A stretch of DNA of 64,000 nucleotides from Candidatus Latescibacterota bacterium (GTDB taxonomy: Bacteria; Latescibacterota; UBA2968; SICM01). A program made the position numbers and the translations under genes. The DNA lies in NCBI GenBank assembly GCA_965217865.1, contig CBDCJO010000002.1:3712001-3776000 (forward strand), written 5' to 3'. Shown here piece by piece: positions 1-64,000 of the stretch; the stretch's first letter is position 1, and each line of letters begins with the position of its first letter. Below the pieces are notes generated by a model. It ran no database searches. It saw nothing but the letters and a program-made list of their open reading frames with translations, and had not been told where the DNA came from.

Positions 1-294
1 CTGACACTGCCTGCCCAGCATCGCCTTCAGGTACTGAGCCACTGATGGGTGCGCCACCATCGGGTTGGCCAGCTCGGGCTCCTGTTCGAGCAGGTGGTTG
101 AAGTAGACATTGCCGACTTGGTTGAAACCATCCCATTCCTTTTCCTCGTACTTCCGCAGCAGGCATTCGCGCCAGGACAGCACGACATCCTCTTTCAGAG
201 CGTCTCGAACCAGCAAGAATCCGTGTCGGTCCAGGGCGTCGAGCTGATCCTCCAGCTCGACAATCTCGTCAGTATCGGCGATCATTTCCATCAT
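1..294 (-). CDS. Phytanoyl-CoA dioxygenase (PhyH)-family protein, N-terminal part (runs off window)
   Basis: Manual translation MMEMIADTDEIVELEDQLDALDRHGFLLVRDAL...LANPMVAHPSVAQYLKAMLG; GGGAGG RBS upstream; follows the heparinase gene on the same strand. Confidence 0.55.
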   Translation of the reverse strand, partial: MMEMIADTDEIVELEDQLDALDRHGFLLVRDALKEDVVLSWRECLLRKYEEKEWDGFNQVGNVYFNHLLEQEPELANPMVAHPSVAQYLKAMLGRQCQ

Positions 295-347
295 GTCCCC
301 TCCCTTTCGTTGCGCCCCCAAGCTATCACGCTGAGCGGACTGCTTCT

Positions 348-2606
348 TCACCCATACCTCCGGATGACTTCCTTCACCTGTGTCGTCCCCTCAGCGTCCT
401 TCCGCACCAAAAGTCCTAGTCCCTCGAAAGCCATCCCCTCCCATTCCCAGCACCCCTCCCTCGCCGGCGCGCAGTAGATGTCCTGCCTGCCATCCGGCAA
501 AATCACATGCATCCAGCCGCTACCAGGATGGCCCAGCGCTTCGACCTGGGGAATTGCCGTTTCATTGCTTCGCAGGGGCCAGATCACCGTCTGAATAAGA
601 GCAGGGGGTGCACCGAGCTGACGATAGACCACACAGGGAGCCGGTACCGGCCGCACACCCCCACCGCAGTACCAGCCCTGCAGTTCCGGTTCGGGCCGTC
701 CTTCGACGGCTTCCAATTCCAGCCCCTCGACCACCGCGGGGATGAGCGCCAGGTTGGGTTCTCCGAACGTGGTGGTACGCGCGGTCTTGGCAGCGGAGTC
801 CACCTCGATTTCCACCGGCACAAAGTGGAAAAGTGACTCGTAGGTGTGCCTTCCATTGCCGGTGAAGCGATCTGTTACCATCCAGTATGAGTAATCGCCG
901 GGTTCCCGAGCTTTGACGAAGAGGACGCTGCGGTGATGCTGCACCGAGTGGTTGATCTCCCCCTGCCACGGGTCCGGTGCGAATACCGACGACATCGGTT
1001 CGGCGTAGTGCCCGGTGCCGTAGCCCTCTTCGTATGAACCGGCCAGGTAGTCGCACACCGGCGTACTCCACCAGGGATTGTCCAGCGGTCCATCGGTGGT
1101 AGAGGGACCGGTAACCAGCCGCATCTGGCTGAGTCCATCTACGATGGCGCTGTTGTGGCCTACTGTGTGGCCGAAAAAGCGGTACCAGGGCAATTCGTGT
1201 GCCTCGCGGGAATAGCTGTGGATGCCCAGGTCCTCCATCAAGGAGCGGCCGTAGGCGACCACTTCGACGGCCAGCTTCCCTTCGTGGGCGTGTAGCACAC
1301 CCAAGGGTCCCACATCGAAAAACAGGTAATTGGCCTCCCGGCTCCAGTCGGAGCGCATCACCCCCACCCCGCCATAGGGGAAATAGACGGAGCATCGAGA
1401 GGGTGGGGTACCACGCTCCCCGCCGCTGGCGATGTACTCCATGTCCCGGCTTTTTTCGAGACCGGCCACGGAGCGGACGAAGTTGAACGGGAAACCCCGC
1501 TGACCGTCGCCCGTCCACACACAACTGCCGTCCGGCTTGGCGATGTAGGCAAGGAATTCGGCACGCTTGACAAGGGCGGGGCGGAGATGGTCGGGAACGG
1601 GATAGCCGTTTTCGCGCGCCAGGCGCAATCCTTTCGCCCCGTTGGTAGAGGCTCCGATGACGTAACCATACGAATTCTCCTTGGTGGAGCCGTCCGGATA
1701 GGCTGCCGCCTCTCCGAAATATTGGCCGATCTGGTTTAAGCCGCGTCGGCGCCAGTGGGAAGCGCGCTTACACTCCGGCATACCCACGCCCAGCCATAGA
1801 AATCCCAGACCGTTATAGAGCAATTGGTTGCCCTGTGCCCCTTCCACGGGCTCCATCGACGCGGCACAACCGTCGACGAGCCAGCCGTACATGGCGCAGA
1901 AGTCGTTGGCATCGAGGTTCTCCCAGGAGAGGATGAAGGGCAGCATCTGCAGGTAGTTGACGGTCAATTGCAAATCCGGTATCCAGATCCAATCGCTGCG
2001 GTGGTTTACGTAGCGCACGTAGTGGGCGGCTATTTGGACCAGCTTGGCTATGTATTTCTCCTCGCCCGTCAACCAGTAGGTCTGGACCAGCGCCCGAAAA
2101 TAGTACTGGTAGGGCAGGCTCAACGTCCACCTCCGCCCGGTACCCGAAGCGGGCGGCACGTGCTCCCAGTTCCAGTCCTGCCCCAGATCCTGGACGCCGT
2201 CTTCAGGCGAGTAGGGCAGGAAGACCTTGTTCTCCAGGACCAGGTCGGCCAGATCCACGACCGTGTAATCCGAGGCCATGAGCCCCTGGGTACGGGTGTG
2301 AGTATATCCCTTGGCGCGGCTGATCAATGGCTTGACCTTGCCGCGATCCTTCCAGGTGATAACTTTGGGATGCTCTGTGAGAAAATCGAACATCGACGTA
2401 TTGCGCTCGAAGTCCTCTCCTTCGCCGAAGTGCCAGTCCAATTTAGGCTGAATGCGGGCCCTGTGATAATCCAGATAGGCCACCTCGGCAGCGGCGATAT
2501 TTCCTGCCTCGACCGCGTCATTTACCTTTTCCAGGCCGGAATATTCCAGGTCCAATCGTTCGAATAGCGACTTATTGTCGTGACAGCGCTTTTCATTTAA
2601 TGACAT
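348..2606 (-). CDS. Heparinase II/III family polysaccharide lyase
   Basis: Motifs YPDGSTKENSYGY, GVMRSDW, FDVGPLGVLHAHEGKL, HNSAIVDG; likely start MSLNEK at 2606 because the upstream ORF extension lies inside the IS end. Confidence 0.85.
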   Translation of the reverse strand: MSLNEKRCHDNKSLFERLDLEYSGLEKVNDAVEAGNIAAAEVAYLDYHRARIQPKLDWHFGEGEDFERNTSMFDFLTEHPKVITWKDRGKVKPLISRAKGYTHTRTQGLMASDYTVVDLADLVLENKVFLPYSPEDGVQDLGQDWNWEHVPPASGTGRRWTLSLPYQYYFRALVQTYWLTGEEKYIAKLVQIAAHYVRYVNHRSDWIWIPDLQLTVNYLQMLPFILSWENLDANDFCAMYGWLVDGCAASMEPVEGAQGNQLLYNGLGFLWLGVGMPECKRASHWRRRGLNQIGQYFGEAAAYPDGSTKENSYGYVIGASTNGAKGLRLARENGYPVPDHLRPALVKRAEFLAYIAKPDGSCVWTGDGQRGFPFNFVRSVAGLEKSRDMEYIASGGERGTPPSRCSVYFPYGGVGVMRSDWSREANYLFFDVGPLGVLHAHEGKLAVEVVAYGRSLMEDLGIHSYSREAHELPWYRFFGHTVGHNSAIVDGLSQMRLVTGPSTTDGPLDNPWWSTPVCDYLAGSYEEGYGTGHYAEPMSSVFAPDPWQGEINHSVQHHRSVLFVKAREPGDYSYWMVTDRFTGNGRHTYESLFHFVPVEIEVDSAAKTARTTTFGEPNLALIPAVVEGLELEAVEGRPEPELQGWYCGGGVRPVPAPCVVYRQLGAPPALIQTVIWPLRSNETAIPQVEALGHPGSGWMHVILPDGRQDIYCAPAREGCWEWEGMAFEGLGLLVRKDAEGTTQVKEVIRRYG

Positions 2607-2678
2607 ATCATTCAATGGCAGCAGGCTGTATCTATTCTGAGATAACAAGAGAAAAGCAGATAAAGGTCCAAGCAAGAT

Positions 2679-3660
2679 TCAGGCAGCCTTGTGGATGGTC
2701 TGGGATGTTCTTTGCCGATTGATTTCTATGCGGCGCTGCCGAGCCTCCTCCTTTCGACCTTGTCGGTGGTGAAGAATCTTTTGATGCTGGCCTTTATGCC
2801 TCTGAAGAGGCGTGACATACTGTATTGCCCCGTGATAGCGTTCGGCGTTGTAGCTGTGAATGAAGGAATCAATCAGGCCTTCCAGTTGATGGAATGTGAA
2901 GATGTCCTGGAAGCGCAGCCAGTCGTATTTGAATGTCCGGAAAAAGGCTTCGATCCAGGCGTTGTCCGTGGGTGTTTGATATCGGGCAAACAGCTGCGAG
3001 ATGCCCAGGTCCTTGAAGAATTGGGCCATCGATTTGGCCTTCATCTGAGATCCGTGATCTGAGAGGGCTGTCAAGCTTATGGGCCCAGTGTCCAGCAGTC
3101 CTTCGTTGGCAAGGGCTTGATCCCAGGCCTGTTTGACCTGCTCCACGGTCGCGTTGAAGGAGAGCTTCCATCCTACGATCTTCCTGGAATACACGTCGAG
3201 AATGGCGGTAAAATACAGGAACAAACCGAAAAATGGGATGTAGGTCAGGTCCCAGCTCCAGACCTGATTAGGACCTTCAGGTTTGACCTGGGGCTTGCTC
3301 TGCTTGACCGGCGTCCTCACCTGTTTCCTGCGTGCCAGACGTTCTTTCCTGGCCTGTCGGTAGAAGCTGGAGGCCGAGGCCTGCACTACCCCCTTCTCTG
3401 AGGCTACCACCGCCAGCTGATGGGGAGGCAGATCGGCATAGGTCTCATCCGTGTGGGGCCTCATCAGGGGCGGGCCCGGGCTTCCCATCCAAAAGCGGGT
3501 CCGACACCCCATCCAGCTTCTCTTCTCGATCTCGCCGGCTCCAGGCACAATACCGCTGGAGGGGAAGCTGTAGGATCTCGCAAGAACGGGTGAGTTTCAC
3601 CCCTTTCTCCTTGGCCCGATGGACCATTAAGAGGATCTCGCGTTTGACCTCAGCTTGCAC
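2679..3660 (-). pseudogene. IS3 OrfB DDE integrase, frameshifted by a 44-bp deletion
   Basis: PNQVWSWDLTY, SDHGSQ, DNAWIEAFFRTFK; frame broken near 3450 relative to copy 2. Confidence 0.85.
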
Positions 3661-3683
3661 CCGGTGGCCCTTGATCGGGCCTG

Positions 3684-4019
3684 TCAGATCCCATTCACAC
3701 TTTTTTTTAGCAGGGAAAGTTCCACAGATTGCTCAATGATCGTTTGCTCCAGGCGTGCCCGCTCTTTGCGCAGCTGCTCCACCTCCTCAGCCGATACCAT
3801 CGGCTTGCGGCTCCGGCGACCCTTGAACTCCTTGAGGGCCCCGGACTTGACCGACTCACGAATACGCTTTAGATCCGAGGAATGAATGCCCCATTTCCGC
3901 AGCACCTGTGCAATGGGAACATCTCCCCGGCTGGCTTCAAGGAAAATCTCATACTTCTGTTCCGGGGACAAGCTCCTGCGCTTCTTGACCGGGTCACTGT
4001 TTGAGGACAGTTGCTCCAT
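3684..4019 (-). CDS. IS3 OrfA HTH protein
   Basis: HTH plus C-terminal coiled coil; identical protein at 27206-27541. Confidence 0.85.
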   Translation of the reverse strand: MEQLSSNSDPVKKRRSLSPEQKYEIFLEASRGDVPIAQVLRKWGIHSSDLKRIRESVKSGALKEFKGRRSRKPMVSAEEVEQLRKERARLEQTIIEQSVELSLLKKSVNGI

Positions 4020-4270
4020 CTTTACTCCTCCTGTGAGGTCAGGGATATCCCAAAATATGTATCCCTTCTCAACCCTACAGGCAACCAGGATCTTGCTTCG
4101 ACCTTGCCCCCATTTTTTCGGGCGATCTCAGACAAAAGATAGGATCCGTTCGTCCTCGCTGCCGCCTTCGCCCGTTCGTAGGCCCCCTTCAATGTGGTGC
4201 GATAAGCCTCTCCCCCCTTGCGCTCTTGCGCTTGATCCCTCAGGGTAGTTCACCGCGATGGATAAGAGCG

Positions 4271-5720
4271 TCATTCCTTCGGATAATCCAACGAATCTCC
4301 GCTTACATCGATTACACAGACCGATATCTTGCGCGCTTCATCTTCAGATAGTGTCGCCTTCAGTTGCTCCCGCAGCTTTTGGGGACTGTACGGGCGGGTG
4401 TCGCGAGGGGGTGGCTGGGTACAGTCTTTGCCGAACCAGAAGACCAGGTAGATCCCATATCCGCTCGTGGCAGGGCCGGTGGTGTACTGCTTGATCAGTT
4501 GGTTTTTGCATGCGCTCCATAGATCTCGGTGATTGTTCTTTTTGACTTCGACCGGCACCTGAAAATCCAGGCATGAAACGCGTATGTCGGCTCGTCTGTC
4601 TTTGGCGTAATGCCCCTCGGGTTGGGCGTCGACTCTTTCCGGAAGGAGTTGTCGCAGATCCGAAAGCATCGCATCCCGGCAGGAGTTCTCGTTTTTCGGG
4701 GAGCAAGGTTTTCCGTTGGAGTCCTCGTTCCAATACGGGCGCCAGTCGTCGGTATTGCCGGTCCGGATCCGGACGGCGGTCTCGCGCAGCCGATCCCTCA
4801 CGAGGGCCGCGAGGTCGCCAGCGTTAGCGGGCGAGCCGCCATTCAACGTCCGGCAGACCTGTCCAATATCGGGATGCCGATAGCCGGAGTCACGGCGAAT
4901 CACTCGTTGGTCATCCGACGCCCTGGACAGCACGTCGCGCCAGCACCGGATTGGCACGAAGGCTGTCCAGCGCGTCGCTCGCGTCTTTGGCGGGAGAAGC
5001 GGCGAGGCGTCGTATCAGTTCGTGGACAAGCCCAGAGGCTTGCATTGCAGGTGTGACCACCCCGTTCGTATCCAGCCACTGATCGGATTCGACGTAGCTT
5101 CCAACGAGGCGGAGGAGGAGTTCCAATACCGGAATCCCCAGCTCATCGAACGAGAACCACACGCGATCTTGAGTGCAAAAGAACGCCGCCAGTTGCAGAA
5201 TCCGGCGCTCACGGCCCTGCACGAAGTCATTCAGAAGGTCCCTGTACACCGCTGGTGAAACGATGACGCCCGCCGCCAACCAATGCACGCGCTGAGCGAC
5301 GTTCATGCTCGTCCGGGACAGTTTCCTTCCGATCACTTCCCGAAACAACGCTCTGTCGGCATGTTGAAGTGCAGCCTGGAGCAGATGATCCAGTGCGTCG
5401 ATATGCTTCAGCTTGCAACGAGTCGGAAAGGCGCGGAGCAACTGCAGGCTCGCGTGCCGAGCGACCTGAGAATGGGCTTGGTCGTGCGCGAGTTCCCAGA
5501 GCTTGTAGATAACCTCGCGGTCACCGCGGAACTCGGTAACGGCGAATTGTACCTGCACATCGGCTACGATCTCGGGACGCGCCTCAAGAAGTCGTCGATA
5601 CCATTCGGGCCGATATCCGCCGTGCGGCGTACAGTAATAGAACGCAATGGCCTTGCGAATCCGGCCGGCGTTCCATCGGGATGCGTCTTCCGGTGCCGTC
5701 CTTTCGACTTCAGCCAAGGT
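4271..5720 (-). pseudogene. C-terminal part of a large NACHT/STAND-type protein with nuclease-like tail; 5'-truncated and frameshifted near 4950
   Basis: YWNED..PKNENSCRDA..DAQPEGHY..RADIRV..VPVEVK..GIYLVFWFG (PD-(D/E)xK-like); fused at ~5720 to a recombinase N-terminus. Confidence 0.6.
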
Positions 5721-5828
5721 CTGCTCGAGTCCCTCATCGGTGGACTTGCGCGTGTAGATGGCGCAGCGGAGGGTCCCGGTTCCATTGGAGGACGATGCCG
5801 GGATGGCCTGAGGAGCGTTTCCGCTCAT
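5720..5828 (-). pseudogene. Large serine recombinase, N-terminal fragment
   Basis: LRCAIYTRKSTDEGLEQ catalytic-Ser motif; start overlaps the DUF2924 stop. Confidence 0.8.
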
Positions 5829-6285
5829 GCGTTTCCCTTTCCGGATCCACGGCTGTGGTTCCGCCTCTTTCCCCGGGTAAGCCCGAAGAAGGCAAAGCCG
5901 TTCCATTGGCTGCCGGTGACCTGCCGGGCGATGGCGGAGAGGGACCGGTAGCGGCGTCCCTCGAACGCGAAGCCGTCATCGAGCACCTGCACCACCAGGT
6001 CGCGGCCCTGGAAGGCGCGCACCAGCAGCGTCCCCGGCAGGGGCAGCCGCCGGTCCCGCGAGGGCGACAGGCGACCGGCCGTCGTCCGCGCCTGCTCCGC
6101 CGCCGTGCCCGGTCCGAGAGGCCGCCCTTGGCCAGGGCCTGCAGACGCCAGGCGATCCGCTTGCGCAGGAACGCCTTGTGGTACGAGCGGGTTTCCTCCC
6201 CGAAGACCTCGAGGTACTTCTCCCGCAGTTCACCCACCGTCATCCGGGAGAGCCCCTGAATCTGTTGAACCGTGCCGGCTTCCAT
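5825..6285 (-). pseudogene. DUF2924-domain protein with internal frameshift
   Basis: LREKYLEVFGEETRSYHKAFLRKRIAWRLQ, then in another frame GFAFEGRRYRSLSAIARQVTGSQWNGFAFFGL. Confidence 0.8.
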
Positions 6286-6524
6286 ACGGAATCCTCCCTT
6301 CCTTTGGGGATATAAAGCCGTTAACCTTTTCAATATGAACGACTTGTGTGGCCGGCATGTCAAGTCGTTTCTGCCCAAACGTCCCAGATTCTTCGGACGG
6401 CTACTCGTTATTGGGTGCTCCCGGAATCAGGGGCGAGACGGCGGCCGTTTCGGAAACGCGGGAAGCCCTGCGCCAGGAGCGAGGCGAGGGAGAGTCTCGT
6501 CGAGCGAGTCAGGAAGGGGGTCGA

Positions 6525-7111
6525 GGTCAGGCTCCAGGGGGATACTCGCCGGAGGAATTTCCGAAACGTCGAAACCGGCCGTCCGGATGCAACCGGGCTG
6601 TTAAACAAGGACGACAGAAAAAACAGAGAATCGGAGAATCCGGAGGAGATATCTCTGCTCAGCGGACGCAACCCCACGGTTGCGCTTGCAATCCCGGGGG
6701 GAGCGCTTCGAAACAGAGAATTTGCAGAGAGGGGGGAAGATGGCATAAGCGTTTGTGAATACGGCAGAAACGACAAGACCTCGAAGGGGTTGCCCCACGG
6801 GGTCTGGCGTTAACGGACGACCGCCGAAGTTGGCGGATGGGAATATGGCTCCCCATATGATCCTTTCCCCGGAACCATTCTCTGTTCGTCAGACGTAACC
6901 TGCTGTATTGAAAGGATATATCGTAATTACGCCCGCACCGTCGAGGCGGAAACCATGTCAAGACGTCAAGACCGATTCCCGTTTTTCCAGTCATATCAGT
7001 CGTTTCTTCCACATTGGGACCGGCTCCCCAACTGCACCCTTTTCCTGACCGCTCACCTTCACGCCAGAGAGAGAAACCTCTTGTATTTGAGGGAGTTGTG
7101 GAACATGGACG
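6525..7111 (+). repeat. Non-coding att-like repeat, copy A
   Basis: Aligns by eye with 11806-12395, 40628-40961, 42020-42458 and 63681-64000; GGCTCCCCA at 6847 and 7022. Confidence 0.9.
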
Positions 7112-7438
7112 CGAATGAAGGGCTCGCCGGTCCCCGCCCAAACGACGTTCGGGTCGGAAGGGGCAACCTCGACCTCGCCCACGGAGTGCACCGGCTGGTC
7201 GTCGAAGACCGGACGCCAGTTCACCCCTCCGTCCTCGGTTTTCCACAGGCCGCCGGAAGCCGCGCCCGCGTAGTAGGTGAATCGGTCGCCAGGAACCCCC
7301 GCCACCGAGGTGATGCGGTTTCCGAGCGGACCGATGTGACGGTACTGCATGGCGGCGAAGGCGGTGGTCGGGACCTGTTGGGCGACGCCCGGCGGGCGGA
7401 TGCGCGGCGAGGGTCAAACAAAGAACCGGGGAACGCAT
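7112..7438 (-). pseudogene. VPS10/sortilin-like glycosyl hydrolase, N-terminal fragment
   Basis: YRHIGPLGNRITSVAGVPGD..YAGAASGGLWKTEDGG..VWAGTGE; cut by repeat A. Confidence 0.8.
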
Positions 7439-7544
7439 TACGCACTTCTCCTTGTGGGGGCGCACACCTGCCTGCGGGGAGCCCGCATACCACGGGAAGA
7501 ATAATGCGAAGACCGGCGGCCCGGCTATCCGACGACCAGTAGGG

Positions 7545-8018
7545 TCAACGAACGTGCGCCGGCGCGGGCTGGGTGACGAAGTCGGGGTGTCCCGCACCGA
7601 CCGCACCGTGCATGAGGCTGAAGGCGACGCCCGTCTGACCCGCCATTTCGCCGTGCAGGTGCCCGCCGAACTCGCCCGGCGTGTCCTGTTCGAACTCGGC
7701 GATCGATTCGTCTTGCACCTCGACCTCTAGGTACAGGTCGTCGTCGATGGGGATCGGGTCTCCTTCATGGTCGACGAAGCGGACGGTGATATGTGGAGTC
7801 TCCTGTCCGACTTCGACCTCCATTTCGCCGGTCCACGTCTGTGTCTCTCCGTCATAGGAAGCGAACACGCTGCCACTCATGACCAGGTGCACTCCCTCGG
7901 GCTCGGCGTGTTCGTCCTCCACTTCCACTCCGGTCATCGTCTCGTTGCAGGCCCCGAGCAGCAGTGCAAAAGCGGCGAGAACGAAAAGCGGTGAGTTCCT
8001 GTAGATCCGTCTATTCAT
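7545..8018 (-). CDS. Acidic His-containing lipoprotein
   Basis: Lipobox LLGAC; DEHAEPEG motif; directly downstream of the TonB receptor. Confidence 0.75.
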   Translation of the reverse strand: MNRRIYRNSPLFVLAAFALLLGACNETMTGVEVEDEHAEPEGVHLVMSGSVFASYDGETQTWTGEMEVEVGQETPHITVRFVDHEGDPIPIDDDLYLEVEVQDESIAEFEQDTPGEFGGHLHGEMAGQTGVAFSLMHGAVGAGHPDFVTQPAPAHVR

Positions 8019-8069
8019 TTGTATTTCTCCTGTGTTGATTCAGCAGAGTCGCGCGCCGGGAGAACATCC

Positions 8070-10322: not shown

Positions 10323-10374
10323 TTAAGGACGCCGATACACGGGTACGCGCCACACAGAGGTCAGGGTGACGACC

Positions 10375-53186: not shown

Positions 53187-54724
53187 CTACCTCCTCGTCA
53201 ATTTCACGCCATACCATACGATGCCGATCACGATGCCGATCACGCTGAAGACCAGTCCCGCGCTCAAAATCAGGTTCGTCCTGGCGCTCACGTGAATGCG
53301 CACCGTCTTGTCCTGGGTCTGAACGGGCCGGTTGTCCGCCAGGGCCTCGGTCTGGATCTGGATCTCATAGTCCCCACGTCCACCCCCGATGGCGGAAGGA
53401 ACTTCAGCTTTACGAGGGTCTCCTTATCCGGAATCAACGAAGATATCACATCCGGGTTGATCCTGGACTGCCAGTTGATCGGCATGTTTGTGCGGATCCG
53501 AATGTTGTCCAGACGCCGCGTGCCCCCATTGAGCACCCTGATGTCCATGTCCACGGTGTCATCCGTCTTGATCTCGTGGTAGAGGTTCACCGCCCGGACC
53601 TCGATGCGTCCCACACCCCGCGGCGTCATCTCCAGCTTGACTTTGCCTGTGTTGAGCTCGGCGATCTGTTCATCTGAAAACATTTTGTCGTCAAGGGGTT
53701 GAAGCTTCCGCCAGATCTCCTGGGGGACCACCAGTACGTAGAACGCCAGCGGCTTATCGATGGTCACGCGGTCGCTGGTACGGTCGGGCAGGAACACGTC
53801 CAGCTCCAGTTGCTTGCTGCTCACCCCTTGAGTGAAATTGACCTGGGAAAGCCTGCGGGATTGCGCGGAAGACGGGTCCATGAAGCTGTAGGAGATCTGC
53901 CGCGGCAGGTTGATCACACTCAGCTGAAATACGTCGTTGTCACTCGAAAATCGCTCCAGGTCCAGGGTGAAAGTGGCGCTTTCGCCCAGGTTGGCCTCCT
54001 GCGAGAAGTTCGGCGAGGTCACGATCACCCGGTCGGCCCCGGCGTCCTTCTGGAGATAGATGTGTCTCTGATCCGTCTTTCCCGCGTAGGTCATGCTGAC
54101 CGTGACGACCTCCACGTCCTTCAGCAGCAGGAAGTCGATCTCTGCCTTCTGGCCGAAGCGAATCGTCGCAATCTTGCCCTCATACGGCTGGCTGATAATC
54201 GGCCCCACCCCACCCGTCTCCGTGGCCTCGTGGAGGGAGATGAAGACATTGTTGATCTTGTCCGGTTGAAGGCTGGGGTCGAAAACGTCCGCGTCCGTCT
54301 CGACCAGCTTCGCATAGTCCGCCACCCCCCCTGTGGTGTTCTTCAAACTCAGACGCACCCGTTTTTTTCCGTCCTGGGCCTGGTACTTGACGGCCTTCTC
54401 GATCAGGATGTGGGGTTGGTCGAAGATGACCCGAAGCATCGCCTGCTGGTAGTTGATCTCATGGTTGATAAAGGACGCTTGTGTCTTTTCGAATTCCTCC
54501 CGGGAGATCAGCTCCCTTTTTACCAACTCGAGGGCAGACTGGTATTCCGACTTTGCCAAGTCATACGCGGCCTTCTGCTTCTTGAGCGCCAGGATCAGGA
54601 AAGTCTCGTCGTTCCGTTCCGAGTTTAAGCTCTGGGAATACCCCGGGATCCGGGAACACGGAATCGAAAACAATACCAAAACCAAAAATGTCGAGACTTT
54701 GATTTTCAACGGTTCGAATGTCAT
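53187..54724 (-). pseudogene. NEW3-domain membrane-anchored protein, frameshift near 53370
   Basis: Signal peptide, Ig-like domains; true C-terminus GDYEIQI..TM..KLTRR in a shifted frame. Confidence 0.7.
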
Positions 54725-55039
54725 GAAAGTATTTGAACTTGGATACCCCTTCCTTTGGAAGGGGAGGAAAAGTTTAGCTTGCTGAGGGTAAGCTAAAAGG
54801 CTGTTTTGTCCGTACCGTAGTCGAAAAGGTAACTTCTAAAGTGATCAGAGGATATATTCGGTTTCATCTTCAAGAGCAGAAAGGGCCCCTACAGTTGGAT
54901 CTGTTTGGGGAGGGGAGTGGTTAATGCCCCGCCCTTTGGGCGGGGTGATTTACTTACACGTTGAAATTTACGTACTTAAATTCATTCAACGGATAAGATT
55001 TAATGGTAGTTATATATCTTGATGTAGCAAGGCGTTGTG

Positions 55040-55235
55040 CCGGGCCAATTGACCCTACACGCTGACCGAGGCGCTTCGATGACCAGCAAAACCCGTGGCA
55101 CTCCTGCTGGCCGATCTGGGGCTGACCAAATCGCACTCACGACCGCACGTATCGAACGACAACCCATACTCCGAGGCGCAGTTCAAGACCTTGAAGTATC
55201 GCCCGGCCTTCCTGGAACGCTTTGGTGGGCTCGAA
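55040..55235 (+). mobile_element. IS3 integrase fragment
   Basis: LTLHADRGASM / SRPHVSNDNPYSEAQFKTLKY. Confidence 0.85.
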
Positions 55236-55453
55236 CACGCCAGTTCATTCGGGAATTATATACTTGACAAAGACTATCTTGATTTATCCCAAAGTGTTGA
55301 GTTTTTGCGAAAATCTCGCAGAATGCCCCGTCCCTTGGACTTTGATGTCCTGTTTCTATATTTGTCGGCATGAGACTGCCAACAGACTGTTTGAGTAGAC
55401 AGAGCCTTCATCACTACTGTCATGTCCCAGAAGTTCCTTACAAAAGAAGGTAA

Positions 55454-55740
55454 TTAGGAAGATATTGGTACCAGATTCACCAGATATGAAGCAATAATTG
55501 GGAAGAGATCCTCGTCTTCCTGGTTGAATCTGAACTCTGTTTCCTTCAGGTATAAATGGAAATGATGTCGAGGGATCCCTCTGTATTGATATAGCCAATT
55601 TTCAGAAAAACTCCAGAAGCCTTCGATGCCATTGATGTGATGTCGGCCTTTGCCTTTGGGCACCCCTTCTTCTTTTCGAACAACCACGTGGTCACCTTTG
55701 ACTGACACAGCCAAGTATAGGCGTGCCAGTCATCGGTATC
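55454..55740 (-). mobile_element. IS1595-family transposase C-terminal fragment
   Basis: TDDW..HINGIEGFWS..HFHLYLKETEFRFN. Confidence 0.85.
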
Positions 55741-55792
55741 TTTTAATTAGGTATCGCATGAATGGGCAACGAGTATTCTCGTTTCCCCCGAC

Positions 55793-56348
55793 TATGCCCG
55801 GGAGATTGCTAGCGTACAACGTGACGCAACCTTTCATTCCTGCCGATACTTGTCGCCCGCATGAGGGTTTCGATGGGTGTGTTGTCGGGGTTCAACATCT
55901 TGGTAGTCTTTGTGAAAGGCGGTGACGTGTCAGGGGATGTCGTATGAGATTGAGACCAGGAACCTAGGGTCACATCCTGAGGGGGGTAAATGGCACTCGG
56001 ATCGCGAGGGGCTTGAGAGGTAATGGACAGTAGGAGCAATGGAAGTACGCACCCCAGCATACCGAAACTGAGGGCGGATGACCGCAAGGGAGCAGGCTGT
56101 AGAAGCCGTCAGGTGGGGGAGGACGACCGGGTCATGAACCGTCGGATACCGCCCGCCATCGCGACGTGGCTGTTTGTTACTGCTTACGATAAATTTGATA
56201 GTTATATACTCGGTAGCATCCGGGCTGGGAAATTGAATCGTTGTGGGGACGGCTACAGCACTGCCAGGTGTAGCGCCAATTGAGGTAATCGCCATCCATT
56301 TTGCAGGACGCTTTTAGGACTTGCCCAGATCCGTGGGTCGGCGGAACA
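55793..56348 (+). ncRNA. Group II intron ribozyme domain I remnant
   Basis: No credible ORF; blocks such as ACAACGTGACG, GTGTCAGGGGATGTCGTATG, GAACCTAGGGTCACATCC, GGTAATCGCC recalled from group IIB introns; no RT or DV/DVI. Confidence 0.5.
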
Positions 56349-56735
56349 TGCCAACAATTTTGAGACACTGAAAGTTGGAATTCAGTGCAGTTTCCGGCCG
56401 TCTCCATAAGAGGTGTCATCGGCACCGTGGATCCCCGTGCAGGTATCGGGACCAAGTTCGATTTGGTATCACCTGGCGTAATAACGATTGGATCGTGCCG
56501 GTACTTATCCGAGATCCGGGGTGGATTGATCCAGACCTCGGAAGGCAGGTCGGTTGGCAGCGGGGGACCCTGCACAAAACGTTCGGGGTGGGCGATATAG
56601 GCACGCCACAGGGTCTGCTCACGGGCGGCAAGGATTTCCTTGGCGTAGCTATAGTGCACAGATTCCGGGGTCAGCAAGCCCAGGCCTGAGTGGCGATGCT
56701 CTGTGTTGTAGTAGGTGAAGAACTCATGGCAGAAT
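56342..56735 (-). mobile_element. IS3 right end plus OrfB C-terminus
   Basis: FFTYYNTEHRHSGLGLLTP..HPERFV..VWINPP; IR CGGAACATGCCAACAATTTTGAGACA. Confidence 0.8.
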
Positions 56736-56881
56736 TCTTGATGAACCAGATAACCCCGGAGGAACAGGCCGCAAACCATAAAGATTTTACAAGATCCTCT
56801 TCCTACTTCTTGAAATCCGCTCAATTAAAATTGCCAGGTATCAGAATGCTCACCCGATTGCCGTGTTAAGAATAAGTTCCC

Positions 56882-59800
56882 TTATCGTGGATCATATTTG
56901 AGGAAAGAGACATAAGCACCCACAAAAAAAACAACGGCTAAAACCGCCAACAGCATCAAATCTATGTTTACACGTCCCATTATATCGGAAAGACTCTCTT
57001 TTTGATATTTGAATATCGGCATATCACTGATATCCACTGTTTTCTGTTTTGTGGTTGGTCTGGAACGACCTTCCAAAATGGGGGAAAATACAACTCTTCC
57101 AAGAGTTTCTTCCTTTGATTTTAAATAAGATGTAAAAATATCTTTGTGTGCGCGGGCCAAATTAAGGAAGTGCTCCTGGCTTTCGATACCCGTACCAGCT
57201 ATGTTCATGGAGGCAAGGGTCATAATCGAGGTAGGAGAGATTCGTGATAGACCCAAGGCTAACTTGGCTAAACGCTCTTGTTTATTGTGATAATCCTTCT
57301 CCATTCTTGCACTTTCAACCTTCTTTTCAGCATCCATCCGAACTTTATACTCATCTAGCAAGGCTTGCTGCTTTGCCGTCCACTCGGAAAAGGTCTTTCT
57401 GTATTGGGCTATAATCTTTTCTCGCTTTCCACTTGGAGTACCTGGCTCTATTTTAGGGGATCGGGGTGCAGGGTTTTCCATATCAATTTGTTTTAGATAT
57501 GGAATAAAGTTTAGTTCAATATCTCTCTGAACCTGACTCGACTGCATGCGATACTGGTGAATTGAGGGCACCTGAATGAATTGGCTGGCAAGAATCACAC
57601 TTCCCTTTGGGATCACCAGTGTCCAAACAACCCATATTAACAATAGTACCAAAAATGAAATGTTCGACCGACTTGTGCTGGCGGAGACGAACATTCCGAG
57701 GTTAAAAAAAACCGCAAGGTATAGGACAAAAACACAAAAGATCAACAACAGTTGGATTATGTCTTGGCTGTCCGGTTGGAAATCAGGGGAGATCGTGAGC
57801 AACGCAAAACCTAGACAAACCGGGATACTCAAAGGTATCATCAAGCTAAGGAAACCACCGACCATCTTGCCCAGGATAAGAGTGTCTCGCGGCACTCGGT
57901 GAGACAGTATCAGCCCTATCAGCCTGTTGAAAAAGTGCATTTATGCCAAGATGACTGTTGTCTTTCCTTGTGGTTTGGTCCTATGATATATCAGGTTCAA
58001 ACTGAGAAGGGAGGACGAGCAAATGGCAATGGGAAAACGAGGACGACAGAGACAGGAAAACCTGTTCATCGCATCGAACACTTTGGTGAAATCTCCGGGT
58101 CATCCGTTCTACGAGAAGCTGAATCAGGTATTGGGGGCGAACGGCTTCGACGAGTTCGTCGAGGGGCTTTGCCAGCGGTATTACGCTCCTCATATGGGTC
58201 GCAAGGGCATTCCGCCCGGGGTTTATTTTCGGATGCTTTTGATTGGGTATTTCGAGGGACTTGATTCGGAACGTGGGATCGAATGGCGTGTATCTGACTC
58301 GCTGACGTTGCGCCGGTTTTTGGGGTATGCCCTTGACGAACAGACCCCGGATCATTCCAGCCTGTCTCGCATCCGGCATCGGCTTCCCTTGGAAGTTCAC
58401 GAAGCGGTTTTCAAGTGGATCCTGAGGGTCTTGTGCAAAGCGGGTCTGGTGAAGGGGAAGACGTTGGGCGTGGATGCTACGACACTGGAGGCCAACGCCG
58501 CGATGCGCAGCATTGTACGCCGTGACACGGGTGAAGGCTACCAGGCATTCCTTGAGAATCTGGCCAAGGCCTCGGGCATTGAAACGCCTACCCGCGAGGA
58601 CTTGTCCAAGATCGATAAGAAGCGACCGAAGAAGGGATCGAACCAGGACTGGGAGCACCCGCACGACCCGGATGCCAAGATCGCTAAGATGAAGGACGGT
58701 CGCACGCACATGGCGCACAAGGTGGAGCACGCGGTGGATCTGGACACCAATGCCATTGTGGCAGTGGCGTTGTCGGGAGCAGATGAAGGAGATACCGAGT
58801 CGTTGCCCTGGACGCTGCTCGAGGCGCAGCTCAATCTCAAGCAGGTCGCGAAGGACGAAAAAGCTGCCAAACGTTTGCACAGACAGCGTATACGGGAGGT
58901 GGTTGCGGACAAAGGATATCATAGCAACGATGTATTGACCAGTCTGAAGCAAGGCGGCATCCGGAGTTACATTTCAGAACCGGATCGGGGACGCCGCAAG
59001 TGGAACGGCCGACGAGATGAGCAGGCCGCGGTATATGCGAATCGACGCCGGATCAAGGGAGATCGCGGCAAGGCCTTGCGCCGAAGTCGTGCAGAACGGG
59101 TGGAAAGAACCATCGCTCACACATATGATACCGGTGGCATGCGCAGGTTGCACTTGAGAGACCGCGGCAATATCCTCAAGCGTTTGCTGATCCACATCGG
59201 GGGCTGCAACCTGCAGCTCTGCTCATGCGCAAAGTGATGGGCGTAGGTACTCCGAAGGCCCTCCAGGACCTGGCCAAGGCCTTGCAGCGTCTACTGCTCG
59301 TCCTACAATCACGTTTGCTGCCCTCGGTCACCTTTTTAACCTCTTATCAGCGTCTCCTGCTCAATCTCCTTACCTTGATTTATCTGACCCGCACTCCAGG
59401 CGTCTTTTCCGTTTATGTGCGTTGAAAGGTAGTTCTTCAACGGGCTGCTAGGGTGCCATCTTCCTTCTCACCGGAAATGAAGTTATAGGTAAACAGGATG
59501 GCCATCAGGCTAAAAACGACCTTAACAAGAAAAGCCATATCCAAGTCCCCGAAAATACCAAAGATCGGATTTCCTTCGATTTTTCCTCCTGTGGGCGTAG
59601 GATTTCTATAACTTTTTACCGATATATGACGCCCTAGACTGTTTTCTAAACCCGATACGATGATGCTGGGAACTCCCGGAGGCTTACTTAGTTGCACTCC
59701 TGTGTTTGAAATTGCCAAGTAACTGGTTTGCTCCTTTAAGATCTCTCGACTAAGTTCCTTGGTCGTCCTGTATTCGGCAACTTTATCGTTGTAGTTGCGC

Positions 59801-59913
59801 ATGCCTGTGTACAGGCTCAAGAGAATCAGGAAAAAGCAGAAGATTAAAGTTCCATAGAATTTGGGGCTGGAGAGATTGGCTAAAATCTCTTTGCTGAGAA
59901 TGTGTCCAAACAT
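56882..59913 (-). pseudogene. ABC-2 type permease interrupted by an IS
   Basis: Removing 57920-59447 plus one TSD restores GEKEDGTLGLILSHRVPR..LGK in frame. Confidence 0.85.
57920..59447 (+). mobile_element. IS1182/IS5-like (DUF772) element; transposase 58023-59425 with late frameshift
   Basis: IRs CAGCCTGTTGAA / TTCAACGGGCTG; flanks CTAT/CTAG; TPDHSSLSR, VDAT, ADKGY, VER. Confidence 0.85.
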
Positions 59914-60109
59914 GCCGTCCTTCAAAACTCCCCTGATTATGTGTTTGCGACTCAAAGACTTCGATAAAAATCTTTCTATTTAGATTTCCAGTGTACGATA
60001 CATTGTGGCGCTACATCCATCTTTCCTCTGTACCAAACGAAAATATAAGCAAGGTTCGTTTGATTTGACAATTTTCAATTATAACCCAGAAAAAGATAAC
60101 ACGAGTTCA

Positions 60110-60350
60110 ATAAGGAAGTGCAACACTTGGGATAGTTTTTGTTCTATCCTAAGTGTATGGGAAACAATTATAAACACCTTACGGCTGACGAGAGGGACCA
60201 TATTTGTGCGCTTCGAGCATCAGGTAAGTCTCTAGGCGATATTGCCAAGAGCCTCTGCCGGAACAAGAGCACCATTTCCAGAGAGCTCAAGCGCAACCGG
60301 TCCTCGGTTTACAACTACTACTGTTCAAACCAGGCTCAGCAACGGGCCGG
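60110..60350 (+). mobile_element. IS30-family left end plus HTH fragment
   Basis: YKHLTADER..IAKSLCRNKSTISRELKRN. Confidence 0.85.
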
Positions 60351-60504
60351 GCTGCAAGCCATCGTTTGACTTTAGAGTGCTTGTGCGTGCCAAGTTGTCC
60401 AGGATCAGGTGAATTATCGAGTGGAACCATAAGACAAATCCATTACTTTATCATGTTATTTATGGGACAAACACTTGTTGCCAGTTCCATAATTACTCAT
60501 AACG

Positions 60505-60531
60505 CATCACTGCTGTCCAAGATAAATCAGA
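60505..60531. repeat. Isolated MITE terminus
   Basis: CATCACTGCTGTCCAAGATAAATCAGA, the reverse complement of 21895-21921. Confidence 0.8.
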
Positions 60532-60534
60532 TTC

Positions 60535-60887
60535 GCGTAAGCGACGGGTGCGAAATCCTTACTCGCCTCGTACATACGATAACGGATGCCATCGGTAACG
60601 ACCACGTCACACGACACGCCGAGGGCGAACGGTGTACCGATAAATGCCTTCAGCCCAAGCTCTTTGGCGTCCGCCGCGAGTGTTTCCATGCCTTCCTGAA
60701 CTTTAGAATACCAACCCTCTTGTTGGAACAAACCATGTAGGTGGAAATCATACCCGACAACAGCCATCTCTGGGAATACTGCAAGGTCGGCCTGACTCTG
60801 CGCGGCAAGGGACAAGCAGCGCGAGATGGTAGAGACGTTGGATGAAACGTCAGCAGCCATTGGGATTTGGAAGGTGCAGATACGCAC
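60535..60887 (-). pseudogene. Carbon-nitrogen hydrolase (nitrilase-family) cassette gene, truncated
   Basis: GGAG RBS + GTG; ADLAVFPEMAVVGY; begins after GTTAGGT. Confidence 0.7.
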
Positions 60888-60944
60888 TCGAGAATCTCCA
60901 GCCTTTTTCAACGTGGCACCTAACGTTCGCCGGCTGCGAACCTG

Positions 60945-61691
60945 AGCGCCATGTGCCGGGCCGGACAGAGGTTTACCAAGCTTCATGAGTAGAAGCATCG
61001 GCCACCCCAGATCGAAATCGTCTCGGGACTCATTCCAATACTCCTTCGCTCTCGGAGACTTCTCCAGCAGGCATTCGTCAGCGAGATGCTCCTCGATGAG
61101 GTCTATCTGGAGATTGGCCTTCAGGGCAGCATTGACATAGTCCGCAATCAGGTGGCGATAGCTCTCGACGTTAACCTTCAGACCCGTCTTTGTATCCGTA
61201 AAGCGGGCCTGAACGCGGCGGAGGAACATCGCAGGATGAAGCTCGGAAATGAGCACGAAGCCACCCGGCCGACAGATCCTCGCCATCTCGCGAATCACTG
61301 GGTCGAGATCAGGGATGTGTTCTAAGACAAGACAGCAGAGAACGCGATCGAAGGCATCGCTATCGAAAGGGAAGCGTTCCGTCAGGTCGTGGGTAACGAA
61401 TCGCACTTCCTGGTCTTTCGTCTTCTCGATGGCTTGTGCCATCATCTCTGGTGCGAAGTCGATTGCGGTTACCCGAGCTCCCGCTTCTGACAGTTGGACC
61501 GTATGTCGCCCGGTGCCGCAGCCAATGTCGGCAACCTTGAGTCCCTGGACCTCTCCTTGAAGGGATCGCACGAGGGGCTCTTCTAGGATGATCAGCGGAT
61601 TGTCCTGCACATCGTATGTCTCAGACCAGCGAGCGTAGCCCTGCTGGACGGGTGCAACTTCAAGATTAGCCCTGGATTCGTCTTCGATCAC
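60945..61691 (-). CDS. Class I SAM methyltransferase (BioC-like) cassette gene; stop lost, reads through
   Basis: GYARWSETYD, ADIGCGTGRH, LVLEHI, ISELHP. Confidence 0.8.
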
Positions 61692-61744
61692 GTTGTTTGC
61701 TCCCGCGATACAGGTTAATGCCTACCCCCCAGGCCCGGCATGGC

Positions 61745-61907
61745 GCTTAACGAGTTTGGCATTGCCGACTCTTGCCTTCCCGGCGCAGCCGGAGTTGGCG
61801 CGGCAGTTGCCTCCAGTCCCGCCTTCGAGCAACTGCCGTGACAAAGGCAAGTGTGCCGAAGGCCGAGCGACGACTGAAGGGAGGAGCGAAGTGGCAATGC
61901 GTTGATA
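61745..61907 (-). other. Long attC-like integron recombination site
   Basis: Nested palindromes GCATTGCC/GGCAATGC, CTTGCCTT/AAGGCAAG, CGGCAGTTGC/GCAACTGCCG bounded by AAC and GTTAAGC. Confidence 0.6.
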
Positions 61908-62124
61908 TTAATCTATAGGCCCTCGTTGTCGGGAAAAGTTATTATTTGAGGTCCGGACAGAGATATTGTCAAATGTTGTGGATGAGGGCGAGCGTATCCG
62001 AATGGATCAGGCAGCCCTTTTCAGGTCACCATCTTCGAACAGGGCGCCATCAACGACCAGCTGTATCAGGTTTGAGCCTCGTAATCTGAGCCACGATTTC
62101 TCAGCTCCTAAGGAGAAAAACGAA

Positions 62125-62482
62125 ATGAACACCACGCTTTCATTACAGGAGCTTCAAGATGCGGTTGTCGGAAACGTAGCGGCGTTTCGTTGCCGGGGTC
62201 GGCTTGCAGCCGGGAGGTGGCGCTGGTGACAAGGTTTTCCCACCCACGTTTGCCGGGGCCGTATATGCGACCGAACAGCGACGGGTGCCTGGACAGGACG
62301 AAGCCGTCACCTGCGTACTGCTCGACAGCGTGCAGAGTCAAGCCAACCGGATGGAGTTGGCGCTCCAGGAAGCGGTTGATGCCGGTCGCATCAAGCTCCC
62401 GCTTCTGGAAGTCGATTTCACTGAACACGCCCCGACCGACGATGGCGAAGCCGACAAACAAGCCGGGCGACTGATTGACGCC
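62125..62482 (+). pseudogene. csb1: Type I-G Cas7 (Csb1) N-terminal fragment, frameshifted
   Basis: GDKVFPPTF..CVLLDSVQSQANRMELAL. Confidence 0.85.
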
Positions 62483-62523
62483 ATCGGCAGCAGACTGTCA
62501 GATGAAGTCTTGAGCCTTACACC

Positions 62524-63144
62524 CTATTCGACTTCGCCTTCGGGAACTCGCTCGAACTCCCAAACATGGGCTTGGCCATCGGTCTCGGCCTTCATCAACA
62601 CCCAAAGCTGTTTTTCGTCGTCGATCAACTGGATGGTGTGGTGGTTTAGCAAACGTTTGATCTTCTCCATCCATACTGGCACCGAATTCAGAAACGCATT
62701 GGGCTCTTGTTTCGTTGAGAAAGGGTTTGCTGCGTGGAGTATTCCGCTACAGGTGTCGTAAAGAACCTCAAAGTCGTCCTTTGTCAAAAAGCCTGACTTG
62801 ATGTCCTCCAGCAAAACGACCTTGCCGGTCTCGCCATCAACTACTTGTTTATTCGGTTTTGGATAGAACCTTAGATTTGCCTTTTCGAGGGTTTCGAGTA
62901 TGCGCTTCGCGTTCCAGTCTTTTTGAAAGTTCTTTCGGAGTTTCGCATATTCCGATCTGTTCGCCGCCAAGGATGCCAAGGCTATAAGTTCCAGAATCTT
63001 CCTAATCTGAAGGGATACTGATTCGGCTGTTGTTTGGACATACATCGCATGGCGTTTGCCGGTGAAAAAGCCGTTGACCACCTCAGTTCTCTTCTTGATC
63101 TCCTCCATGCAATCAGCGTACTTCGAGTATGGGTTTGCAACCAT
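62524..63144 (-). CDS. Hypothetical protein (HEPN-like)
   Basis: LQIRKILELIA.ASL.AN..Y..C..LHAANP. Confidence 0.65.
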   Translation of the reverse strand: MVANPYSKYADCMEEIKKRTEVVNGFFTGKRHAMYVQTTAESVSLQIRKILELIALASLAANRSEYAKLRKNFQKDWNAKRILETLEKANLRFYPKPNKQVVDGETGKVVLLEDIKSGFLTKDDFEVLYDTCSGILHAANPFSTKQEPNAFLNSVPVWMEKIKRLLNHHTIQLIDDEKQLWVLMKAETDGQAHVWEFERVPEGEVE

Positions 63145-63163
63145 TGCGTGGTCGGTGTCGGAC

Positions 63164-63590
63164 TGATATTGCCCAGGTATAGTAGACACAGAGTTAAGTG
63201 AATTTCTGTTCGAAGTCATCTGGGCTCATCTGGTTAATATAGGAGTGCCTGCGTATCTTGTTGTAAAATCCTTCGATGTATTCGAACAACGCCAACGCGG
63301 CTTGCTCTCGATCTGGATAGATCATTCCGTCGACTTCCTCTGTCTTGAGCCTTGCAAAGAAGGATTCAACAACGGCATTGTCATAACAATTTCCCTTTCT
63401 TGCCATGCTGGATCGGAAGCCGTTTTTGTCCAGCTCGGCTCTCAGGGCTTCACTGGTGAACTGGTTTCCCCTATCTGAGTGGAAGATGAGCCCGGTTGCG
63501 GCTTGCGTCGCCGACAGGCCATCCGAAATGCCCGTAAGACCAGATCCGCCGTCATAAGACAGCCTGTGGACCAGCCTACGACTTTGCGAG
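63164..63590 (-). mobile_element. IS3 right end plus OrfB C-terminal fragment
   Basis: RKVVGWS..HSDRG..GNCYDNAVVESFF..FYN..RRHS; IR starts TG at 63164. Confidence 0.85.
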
Positions 63591-63680
63591 CAAGGTTGCG
63601 CCGGCTACGATTCCGGGCTCCGGGCGCACGGCCGCTTCCGCTGTCCGGTGGGCTACCGTAAGCCGGTGACCGGACCGACC

Positions 63681-64000
63681 GGGTCCGACTTCCAGTGAAT
63701 ACTTGCCGGAGGACCTTCCGAAACGTTGAAACCGGCCGCCCGGACGCAACCGGGCTGTTAAACAAGGCCGACGGGAAAAACAGAGAATCAGAGAATCCGG
63801 AAGAGATATCTCTGCTCAACGGACGCAGTCCCCACGGTTGTGCTCGAACACCAGCGGGAGCGCTTCGAAACAGAGAACCGGCAGAGGGGGAGGGAGGTGG
63901 CACAAGCGTTTGTGAATACGGCAGAAACGGCAAGATCCCGAAGGAGTTGCCCCACGGGGTCTTGCGTTAACGGACGACCGCCGAAGTTGGCGGATTGGAA
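63681..64000 (+). repeat. Att-like repeat copy E (runs off window)
   Basis: Aligns with 6525-6843. Confidence 0.9.

Follow-up and report, generated by a model that had tools for sequence, protein, structure and literature searches.

A fragment mosaic with four tRNA-Asn island joints in a Latescibacterota genome, probably a displaced part of a tandem island stack

How does a bacterial chromosome come to hold a stretch in which pieces of genes and insertion sequences (ISs) lie end to end, with abrupt switches of strand, family and GC content? We addressed this question in a 64,000-nucleotide stretch, hereafter the window (C2:3712001-3776000), of a Candidatus Latescibacterota genome (G000), which consists of two contigs, C1 and C2, of 6.43 Mb in total, with an estimated completeness of 96% and contamination of 9.3%. 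Its RplB protein has its nearest named match, at 80%, in Candidatus Latescibacteria. DNA of the window was present in sequencing runs that include sponge metagenomes. Our analysis suggested that the window contains four joints between islands of a tRNA-Asn-targeting family and is probably a displaced and eroded remainder of a tandem stack in which very many such islands had accumulated, through repeated insertion by a large serine recombinase (LSR), before recombination between IS copies broke it up.

The evidence begins with a non-coding core of ∼300 bp, of which G000 has 42 copies, four of them in the window, with highly variable flanks. It folds better than shuffled sequence (z −3.8), and its read depth was many times the single-copy level in four runs, a sum that includes other organisms and from which no copy number is drawn. 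On one side the core is flanked by remnants of a DUF2924 gene, the LSR and a small gene; in three places elsewhere in G000 the DUF2924-LSR module is still complete and retains the catalytic motif. At least 573 relatives of the LSR were found in GTDB genomes, and among the best 80 loci the DUF2924 gene was adjacent in 75, the core was present in 14 and a co-oriented tRNA-Asn lay upstream in 28, many of these loci being on short contigs. In 10 of the 12 displayed core-bearing loci of other genomes the core terminates at the 3′ end of tRNA-Asn; of the remaining two, one adjoins a repeat of half a tRNA, 2 kb short of the complete tRNA, and the other an arm-like sequence. Because the core stops at the tRNA in this way, we infer that it is the tRNA-side end of the island. 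The sole tRNA-Asn of G000 lies at C1:619978-620053 and is abutted by one core (C1:620047-620308). Among the other 41 cores, 28 continue into a sequence termed arm 1, eight into arm 2 and five into other DNA; 36 of the 42 cores thereby run on across an attachment (att) core to one of two arms that are related to each other, and an HGGxSTG gene often comes next. By their sequence these 36 sites look like island-island joints, such as repeated insertion at one site would leave. The exact att motif was found 25 times in G000 and in none of 131 other genomes of the class, and a looser search gave 1–5 weak matches in 4 of 40 relatives.

The arrangement of the joints points in the same direction. As in a stack, the recombinase is found beside the island end, the core at the 3′ end of the target, and the core again at the joints; a head-to-tail order was found for the tRNA-proximal part. 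Ten co-oriented cores run from the tRNA across the overlap of C1 and C2 (the tRNA copy and the next nine). The next three are reversed and lie inside an inversion that is defined independently of the cores, by two opposed IS3 copies (C2:231133 and C2:326236) with swapped target duplications; once this inversion is undone, 14 cores stand in a row over ∼370 kb. Eight further co-oriented cores were located at 3.17–3.34 Mb of C2, and 22 of 32 neighbouring core pairs are co-oriented genome-wide (permutation p = 0.022). All 28 core-plus-arm-1 haplotypes are distinct, and linkage is minimal across the att site (mean r2 0.02–0.05 within 160 bp, vs. 0.10–0.26 on one side). Most units have an island end yet no recombinase, many hold restriction-modification or other defence genes, and related island segments recur at 94–100% identity. 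When low-copy open reading frames (ORFs) of at least 220 aa were compared, 19 of 94 in the 256 kb behind the tRNA had PADLOC matches (E ≤ 1e-40), whereas none of 69 had such a match in the control DNA (120 kb from three regions picked for low repeat content); the defence genes behind the tRNA include type I, II and III restriction-modification, Avs2, Cas3 and others. Up to 25 kb from a core, 30% of the DNA consists of low-copy duplicates, a share that falls to 7.5% at distances above 100 kb. Cores mark the mosaic zones and are missing from 1.42–2.43 Mb and from 3.78 Mb onward of C2. The joints are spread over at least eight zones, not all of them contiguous with the target, and their former contiguity is what we infer from these patterns.

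How a part of such a stack could have reached the window is suggested by a recombinant IS3-family copy, which together with a 153-bp flank occupies 26099–27815 on the minus strand. This IS (26099–27663) has no target duplication. Its 153-bp right flank at 27663 is what trimming left of one half of an IS target site that has been split, the other half lying at C2:3140237; in an empty copy at C2:3478784 this flank is contiguous, with a short overlap, with the left flank of an opposed copy (C2:3140236). An exchange between the two IS3 copies, most simply an inversion of ∼600 kb, would have parted these flanks. The stack run at 3.14–3.35 Mb would earlier have been the neighbour of the right half of the window, and the next core of this half (42220) is oriented to match that run. 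For 25 of the 45 left ends in the IS3 family, the right end of the same copy has no matching duplication, and several IS families reach 20–90 copies in G000. A 7-bp match between the heparinase flank at the left of the window and C2:2517111 was unconfirmed by reading frame, the homologues starting downstream of the IS, and other 4-bp flank matches, which are at chance level, were not used.

The recombinase itself has an unusual form. All three full copies keep the catalytic motif and lack 59 residues in frame (418–476 of a relative, L044), and LSR remnants that span this region show the identical gap. Motif spacing indicates full length in 134 of 135 relatives, made up of 59 of the 60 GTDB relatives that could be measured and all 75 from viral contigs. 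The gap lies directly after the stretch that aligns to the zinc-ribbon domain of the LI/A118 integrase (4KIS), and a single-sequence model of L044 shows just one confident feature, a hairpin formed by helices 388–454 and 459–493; it is on this hairpin, taken here as the coiled coil, that the gap falls. A single-sequence fold of the local LSR (mean pLDDT, the predicted local distance difference test, 35) was not used. The ratio of nonsynonymous to synonymous polymorphism among the three copies, 0.28–0.48 from small counts, suggests that selection acted on the LSR after loss of the coiled coil. An LI integrase engineered to lack its coiled coil is promiscuous, allows attL × attR excision and shows lowered intermolecular integration (PMC5499577), whereas here the deletion is a natural allele in all local copies. 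In G000 the loss likely relaxes directionality and keeps the joints reactive. A more far-reaching proposal, which we consider rather doubtful, is that an LSR without its coiled coil, free of directionality control and acting on ∼40 joints, has made the stack a megabase-sized, integron-like shuffling compartment that excises, reorders and re-duplicates defence islands, while Ku and LigD fill the breaks, sometimes with slices of chromosomes from sponge symbionts that belong to other phyla. The allele is also a natural counterpart of the laboratory mutant and offers a direct test of directionality loss on a genome. No description of a naturally coiled-coil-less LSR was found in the literature searched, which did not extend to subscription journals.

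The mosaic around the joints could be described in more general terms. The original prediction had seen roughly 70 unrelated pieces. Self-BLAST tiled the window with 58 pieces that have a second genomic copy, 39 of them ≤500 bp, and unique stretches intervene, which makes the figure of about 70 a fair one. The pieces are not unrelated: ISs (∼15.0 kb), one island family (5.5 kb) and other near-identical duplicates (20.1 kb) make up a large part of the window beside 23.3 kb of unique DNA, all of these figures resting on segment boundaries that we set. Internal gene pieces are frequent among the tiles, for example codons 310–359 of a 658-codon frame, or residues 85–124 and 265–325 of one 351-aa protein. 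The GC contrasts that had been noted were found again (0.37 at 11001–11500 and 0.42–0.44 at 57001–58000, vs. 0.63–0.68 at 7001–10500). Second-copy cover is 63% in the window vs. 17–24% per contig; since the window ranks only fifth of 100 windows by repeat cover and 12 windows exceed 50%, it is no singular locus but one part of a large accessory compartment with about a dozen similar zones. Neither a tRNA or tmRNA nor an Rfam family at gathering score was found in the window. Of the integration hotspot that had been proposed, loaded with foreign DNA and eroded by deletion, the loading and the erosion stand, and the hotspot itself does not lie here, its target being the tRNA-Asn at C1.

The joins are real wherever they could be tested, and they differ between strains. 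A contig from another sample was counted as a bridge when it matched 31 letters on each side; runs X2–X11, with a small word share, were left out. Among the pieces listed for 40700–47700 (32 of 874), nine joins (41997, 43704, 44892, 45669, 45793, 46025, 46248, 46750 and 47114) were bridged in this way by contigs of four runs and samples from two studies; at joins 42457 and 42710 the match fell one letter short on one side (30 letters) in each of the four runs, and no bridge was found for join 40960 among the contigs listed. In the region 4150–24100, runs X12 and X14 bridged 21956–22655 and 21956–22751. Join 11517 is missing from X12 and X16, and join 47333 is absent in X14, where a 1,925-bp contig crosses with different letters on both sides. 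The same run holds the empty site of a 280-bp non-autonomous insertion with a target duplication (21641–21920). The target-site duplications reported earlier were confirmed, with 8 bp around a 775-bp IS-like element (50427–51201, minus strand) that also has an empty-site paralogue, all three copies of this element having duplicated 8 bp; so was the empty-site paralogue of the IS at 57913–59451, which is lacking in the twin segment at C2:1076414. The earlier view of a real evolutionary history, rather than a chimera of assembly or of multiple displacement amplification, thus holds for the tested joins.

How the pieces became short was examined at 42 low-copy joins with distant donors. Eighteen overlap by 0–2 bp, 16 have 1–11 unmatched bases and eight overlap by at least 4 bp, several of the latter being IS targets. 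No shared motif was found at the 42 joins, and no signal of rolling-circle (IS91-type) capture was seen by eye in the junction flanks. Intact, adjacent Ku and LigD genes are present in G000, as is ComEC, and non-homologous end joining in Sinorhizobium yields such joins and can capture foreign DNA in breaks (PMC6379672). The overlap spectrum fits Ku and LigD as the likely makers of the joins, though it does not by itself identify an enzyme. Where a fragment matched the inside of a longer ORF (47 cases, some of these ORFs being IS-related or antisense frames), the donor lay in repeat-rich accessory zones in 46, and repeat-poor, core-like DNA makes up 56% of the genome. This argues against random capture, which would sample core DNA; most of the short pieces are remains of accessory DNA that had been duplicated. 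The radical-SAM pieces at 55736–56081, for example, are collinear leftovers.

The more speculative suggestion that the locus captures short DNA fragments from community members fared accordingly: the accessory donors and the collinear leftovers go against it, and a single block (7106–10379, minus strand) retains something of it. This block appears to be a slice of a Gemmatimonadota chromosome cut within a gene, although a misassembly of the block is possible. It contains a TonB-dependent receptor gene (8070–10322) and a lipoprotein gene (7545–8018); a larger gene, inside which the cut falls, contributes its first ∼300 bp, and the block overlaps by 2 bp at its join to arm 2. A relative of the receptor on a 4.7-Mb contig is 97% identical to it, and among the best 120 matches of the receptor all the named ones belong to Gemmatimonadota or its orders (one label being incomplete). 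The whole block matches a 424-kb metagenome contig (68% GC) at 92.9%, with the donor extending on both sides; none of 150 other genomes of the host phylum had the slice DNA. Listed contigs of X12, X14 and X16 over the slice carry many differing sites and are deeper than host contigs, and X1 has near-identical slice pieces at host depth; among the contigs listed none bridged the slice join. As a candidate for a recent transfer between phyla inside a sponge, one that involved ordinary chromosomal DNA, the slice could be dated.

Taken together, the history of the stack would have begun with DUF2924-LSR islands inserting at the last bases of tRNA-Asn. The target is directly visible; if insertion was repeated, each newcomer would have pushed the older islands outward and left an attP-like joint. 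Most units would then have lost the recombinase and kept the end, the state in which they are now seen, many with defence genes. Hundreds of IS copies would have invaded, and recombination between them, visible in two cases and presumably general, would have inverted or moved blocks. Deletions and joins with overlaps of 0–2 bp or a few extra bases, a pattern observed here and probably the work of Ku/LigD, would have trimmed genes to stumps of 50–500 bp, and end joining may occasionally have fixed foreign chromosomal DNA. Such a history would give a concrete origin to the two-speed genome of an uncultured sponge symbiont, in which much accessory DNA appears to be piled and reshuffled defence islands.

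Several observations weigh against this history. The end of C2 next to the tRNA is ∼3.7 Mb away from the window, whose joints read +,+,−,+; a verified link to another stack segment exists for the right half of the window only, and the tie of that segment to the tRNA runs through a 7.3-kb repeat at a contig break. The significance of genome-wide co-orientation is just modest. Short-range pairs across att are few (2, 8 and 20), and four-gamete violations are also common on one side of att (43–82% of pairs), which implies that ordinary homologous recombination shuffles the island ends too. As many as 45% of low-copy duplicates lie >50 kb from any core. The unit adjacent to the tRNA has no recombinase, hence there is no clean age gradient, and an intact module at C2:822349 abuts non-tRNA DNA. 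No distal attR joined to original chromosome was found, only arm-only sites without a matching empty site in relatives; nor did the tRNA-Asn loci of relatives give an original downstream neighbour, the contig of a same-family genome ending in an IS after the tRNA. Unmatched bases at the joins may stem from divergence between copies rather than from LigD, and lowered integration, as in the LI mutant, would have slowed accretion.

Some of these points are shared by a model without any single giant stack, in which excised circles that keep the attP joint, which in contigs has the same sequence as an island-island joint, re-enter through shared ISs or by segmental duplication, so that the joints are passengers and the zones grew separately. 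The scatter over at least eight zones, multi-kb duplicates (for example those of 5.5 and 5.7 kb in the window), long flanks common to some joints (C2:7721 and C2:2503147) and an enzyme that, without its coiled coil, would favour excision (PMC5499577) would all fit. We nevertheless consider the passenger model unlikely, as it does not account for ten co-oriented joints beginning exactly at the tRNA (14 after the inversion is undone) with eight more at 3.17–3.34 Mb, and the best left and right partners of joints are usually different and all 28 haplotypes distinct. Generic IS-driven decay in a host-associated bacterium, with island ends as just another repeat family irrelevant to where the mosaic lies, appears very improbable to us. 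The copy numbers of the IS families, the demonstrated IS-IS exchange and the duplicates far from cores speak for it; the commonest IS (87 full copies), however, is spread through non-mosaic core regions, whereas cores mark the mosaic zones, and defence cargo is clustered behind the tRNA. Should the stack reading fail, the window would be an ordinary IS graveyard.

We give slightly less credence still to a dedicated locus that takes up short community DNA by transformation and strings the pieces together by end joining. It could draw on the block from another phylum, on the presence of ComEC, Ku and LigD with the known ability of end joining to capture heterologous DNA (PMC6379672), and on the 23 kb of the window that are single-copy in the genome and mostly without an assigned donor. 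Nearly all traceable fragments (46/47), however, come from the accessory zones of the genome itself, the short pieces are split-IS flanks or collinear leftovers, the joins have no common motif, and no tyrosine recombinase was found among the 98 ORFs of the window. The last result, together with pieces cut inside genes rather than whole-gene cassettes, also led us to reject an integron, on criteria that did not include attC models. It is hardly credible that assembly or amplification fused several strains or organisms into the window. Contamination of the assembly, joins 11517 and 47333 missing in some samples and the unbridged Gemmatimonadota block could speak for it; nine joins bridged in two studies and four samples, together with target duplications, empty sites, reciprocal flank swaps and duplicates that differ by real insertions and substitutions, speak against it.

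Read as a tandem stack of islands, the window belongs to a known kind of structure, island accretion, of which the scale, the scattering and the loss of the coiled coil are new. A close likeness is offered by the ssrA islands of Dehalococcoides (DsiB; PMC3146451), where a CcrB-like LSR and tandem islands marked by repeats of the target 3′ end are also described, many units are without an integration module and the stack is a strain-variable region. The target there is tmRNA, with repeats within 100 kb, 28 of them aligned over all genomes, and no within-strain duplication in the text available; G000 differs in its tRNA-Asn target, 36 joints in one genome over >1 Mb, scattered zones, many duplicated segments and a recombinase without coiled coil. 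Accretion of cis-mobilizable and integrative mobilizable elements at tRNA ends follows the same course of integration, decay to att-bounded remnants and reintegration at the regenerated site, but with few elements per tandem (SGI1 arrays up to 6) and mostly tyrosine integrases (PMC5704250); the number of units here is roughly ten times that of the stacks in the literature consulted. The best NCBIfam matches of the recombinase are CcrB, XisF and CcrC, which recalls the staphylococcal cassette chromosome (SCC, SCCmec); its scores of 110–154 bits are below the cut-offs of 375–900 (CcrB 154 vs. 900), and the target is rlmH there and tRNA-Asn here, with a module of DUF2924, LSR and small gene, which sets the islands of G000 apart from SCC elements. 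Composite SCC islands are tandem cassettes with restriction-modification genes. IS expansion and rearrangement with end-joining capture resembles G000 in its high IS copy numbers, IS-bounded inversions, Ku-LigD and blunt joins, but neither process alone predicts 36 att joints or a head-to-tail order behind one tRNA. No report of LSR integration at tRNA-Asn was found in a search that left subscription journals and supplements outside, nothing on such stacks in sponge symbionts was found in the literature available, including the accessible part of PMC9580842, and the papers listed for DUF2924 concerned Wolbachia.

The other features of the window were mapped along its length. On the backbone side of the mosaic lies a heparinase II/III-like gene (348–2626, minus; Pfam), with full-length homologues at 55–56% in two class relatives, and the left mosaic edge is an IS3 copy of the ∼45-copy family (2627–4143, minus) whose flanks have no common target duplication. 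Next come an EruA-like NACHT antiphage gene, of which the C-terminal part (4271–5715, minus; NCBIfam NF058535, profile 850–1318) is present in two frames, and an integration-module remnant with the first 179 bp of the LSR and a DUF2924 gene with an internal deletion (5716–6290, minus). Junction 1 (6540–7112, plus) comprises the core, the att core at 6846–6854, arm 1 to 7021 and arm 2 at 7022–7112. Two att cores lie 175 bp apart in 6846–7030, and the absence of the intervening piece in some genome copies and in X12 and X14 contigs is a possible minimal excision.

Beyond the Gemmatimonadota slice, a 99.3% copy of C2:570154-571183 (10486–11517, plus), with an AT-rich gene cut after codon 175 of 247, is blunt-joined to an N-terminal fragment of an IS256-family transposase (11518–11715, plus). 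Junction 2 (att core 11975–11983) and the opposite-end HGGxSTG gene occupy 11806–12898 (plus). The stretch 13106–29117 is largely a single gene cluster that carries insertions: a collinear set of STAS, SpoIIE, anti-sigma kinase, binding protein and histidine kinase genes (13106–21233, minus), ∼70% identical in class relatives and interrupted by IS630 pieces and an IS1380 (18886–20733), and DUF1302 and LolA-like genes (23641–26098, minus), which are cluster mates of the kinase operon in the relative G013. The minus strand at 29819–30619 carries two genes from the distal end of the island family, one for HGGxSTG and one for an unknown protein of 192 aa.

In the right half, a 5.5-kb segment (35455–40960, minus), 99.3% identical to C2:109883-115376 within the tRNA-proximal stack, carries a frameshifted DUF1156-like antiphage gene and island-end remnants, and a RelE/ParE-type toxin-antitoxin pair (40959–41997, minus) is a 99.8% copy of C2:3316322-3317360. 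Junction 3 (42037–42457, minus; att core 42220–42228) has its core cut at 42457. Within 43886–44892 a type I HsdM fragment (minus) is joined to the small gene known from behind the recombinase (44356–44892, plus), and an IS110 with one end truncated lies at 47591–49495 (minus). A 6.9-kb ABC-transporter segment (52207–60627, minus), 99.8–100% identical to C2:1070705-1077593 and split by the IS1182/IS5-like element at 57913–59451, precedes a blunt-joined 99.6% copy of C2:104257-105739 (60628–62111, minus). A single frame (60507–61691) fuses a methyltransferase to a carbon-nitrogen hydrolase piece across 60627/60628 and is a possible chimeric gene born of shuffling. A type I-G Cas7 (Csb1) fragment (62204–62761, plus) is followed by junction 4 (63594–64000, plus), whose att core lies just beyond the window (C2:3776003-3776009). 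Short high-copy IS ends or non-autonomous elements (13–30 copies) were observed at 18706–18894, 50122–50374, 54715–54955 and 55436–55737, several of them themselves targets of IS1380 and IS1182-like insertions.

Additional observations concern the island family and the genome. A relaxase/oriT reading of the multi-copy core was dropped, as the only relaxase found in G000 is a single truncated MobA, MOB-Q oriT motifs do not track the core, and no MOB-Q integrative mobilizable element could be recognised. At C2:819045-822349 an intact DUF2924-LSR module has its att core joined to non-tRNA chromosome, a possible secondary target, and a duplicate of the LSR C-terminus with a partial coiled coil follows the gene there and at C2:3487272. 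Diverged orphan island ends lie away from tRNA-Asn in three sponge-type relatives (L040:10250-10400 in G036, L039 ∼9600 in G007 and L038 ∼10000 in G011), and the recombinase relatives L105, L111 and L117 lie behind tRNA-Met rather than tRNA-Asn, possibly by a target switch. A tRNA-Thr (C2:499398-499472) faces the far side of the accessory zone next to tRNA-Asn and may feed the zone from there. Two more full-length LSRs, 537-aa frames with intact coiled coil, were located at C2:1832000-1834600 and C2:1882600-1885100, the first directly behind the tmRNA gene, and form a further island pair of their own. A short CRISPR-like repeat run is present at C2:373316-373465, and fragments of Cas1, Cas3 and Cas7 are dispersed through the mosaic zones. 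Finally, GC skew flips sign many times along C2, which fits many inversions.

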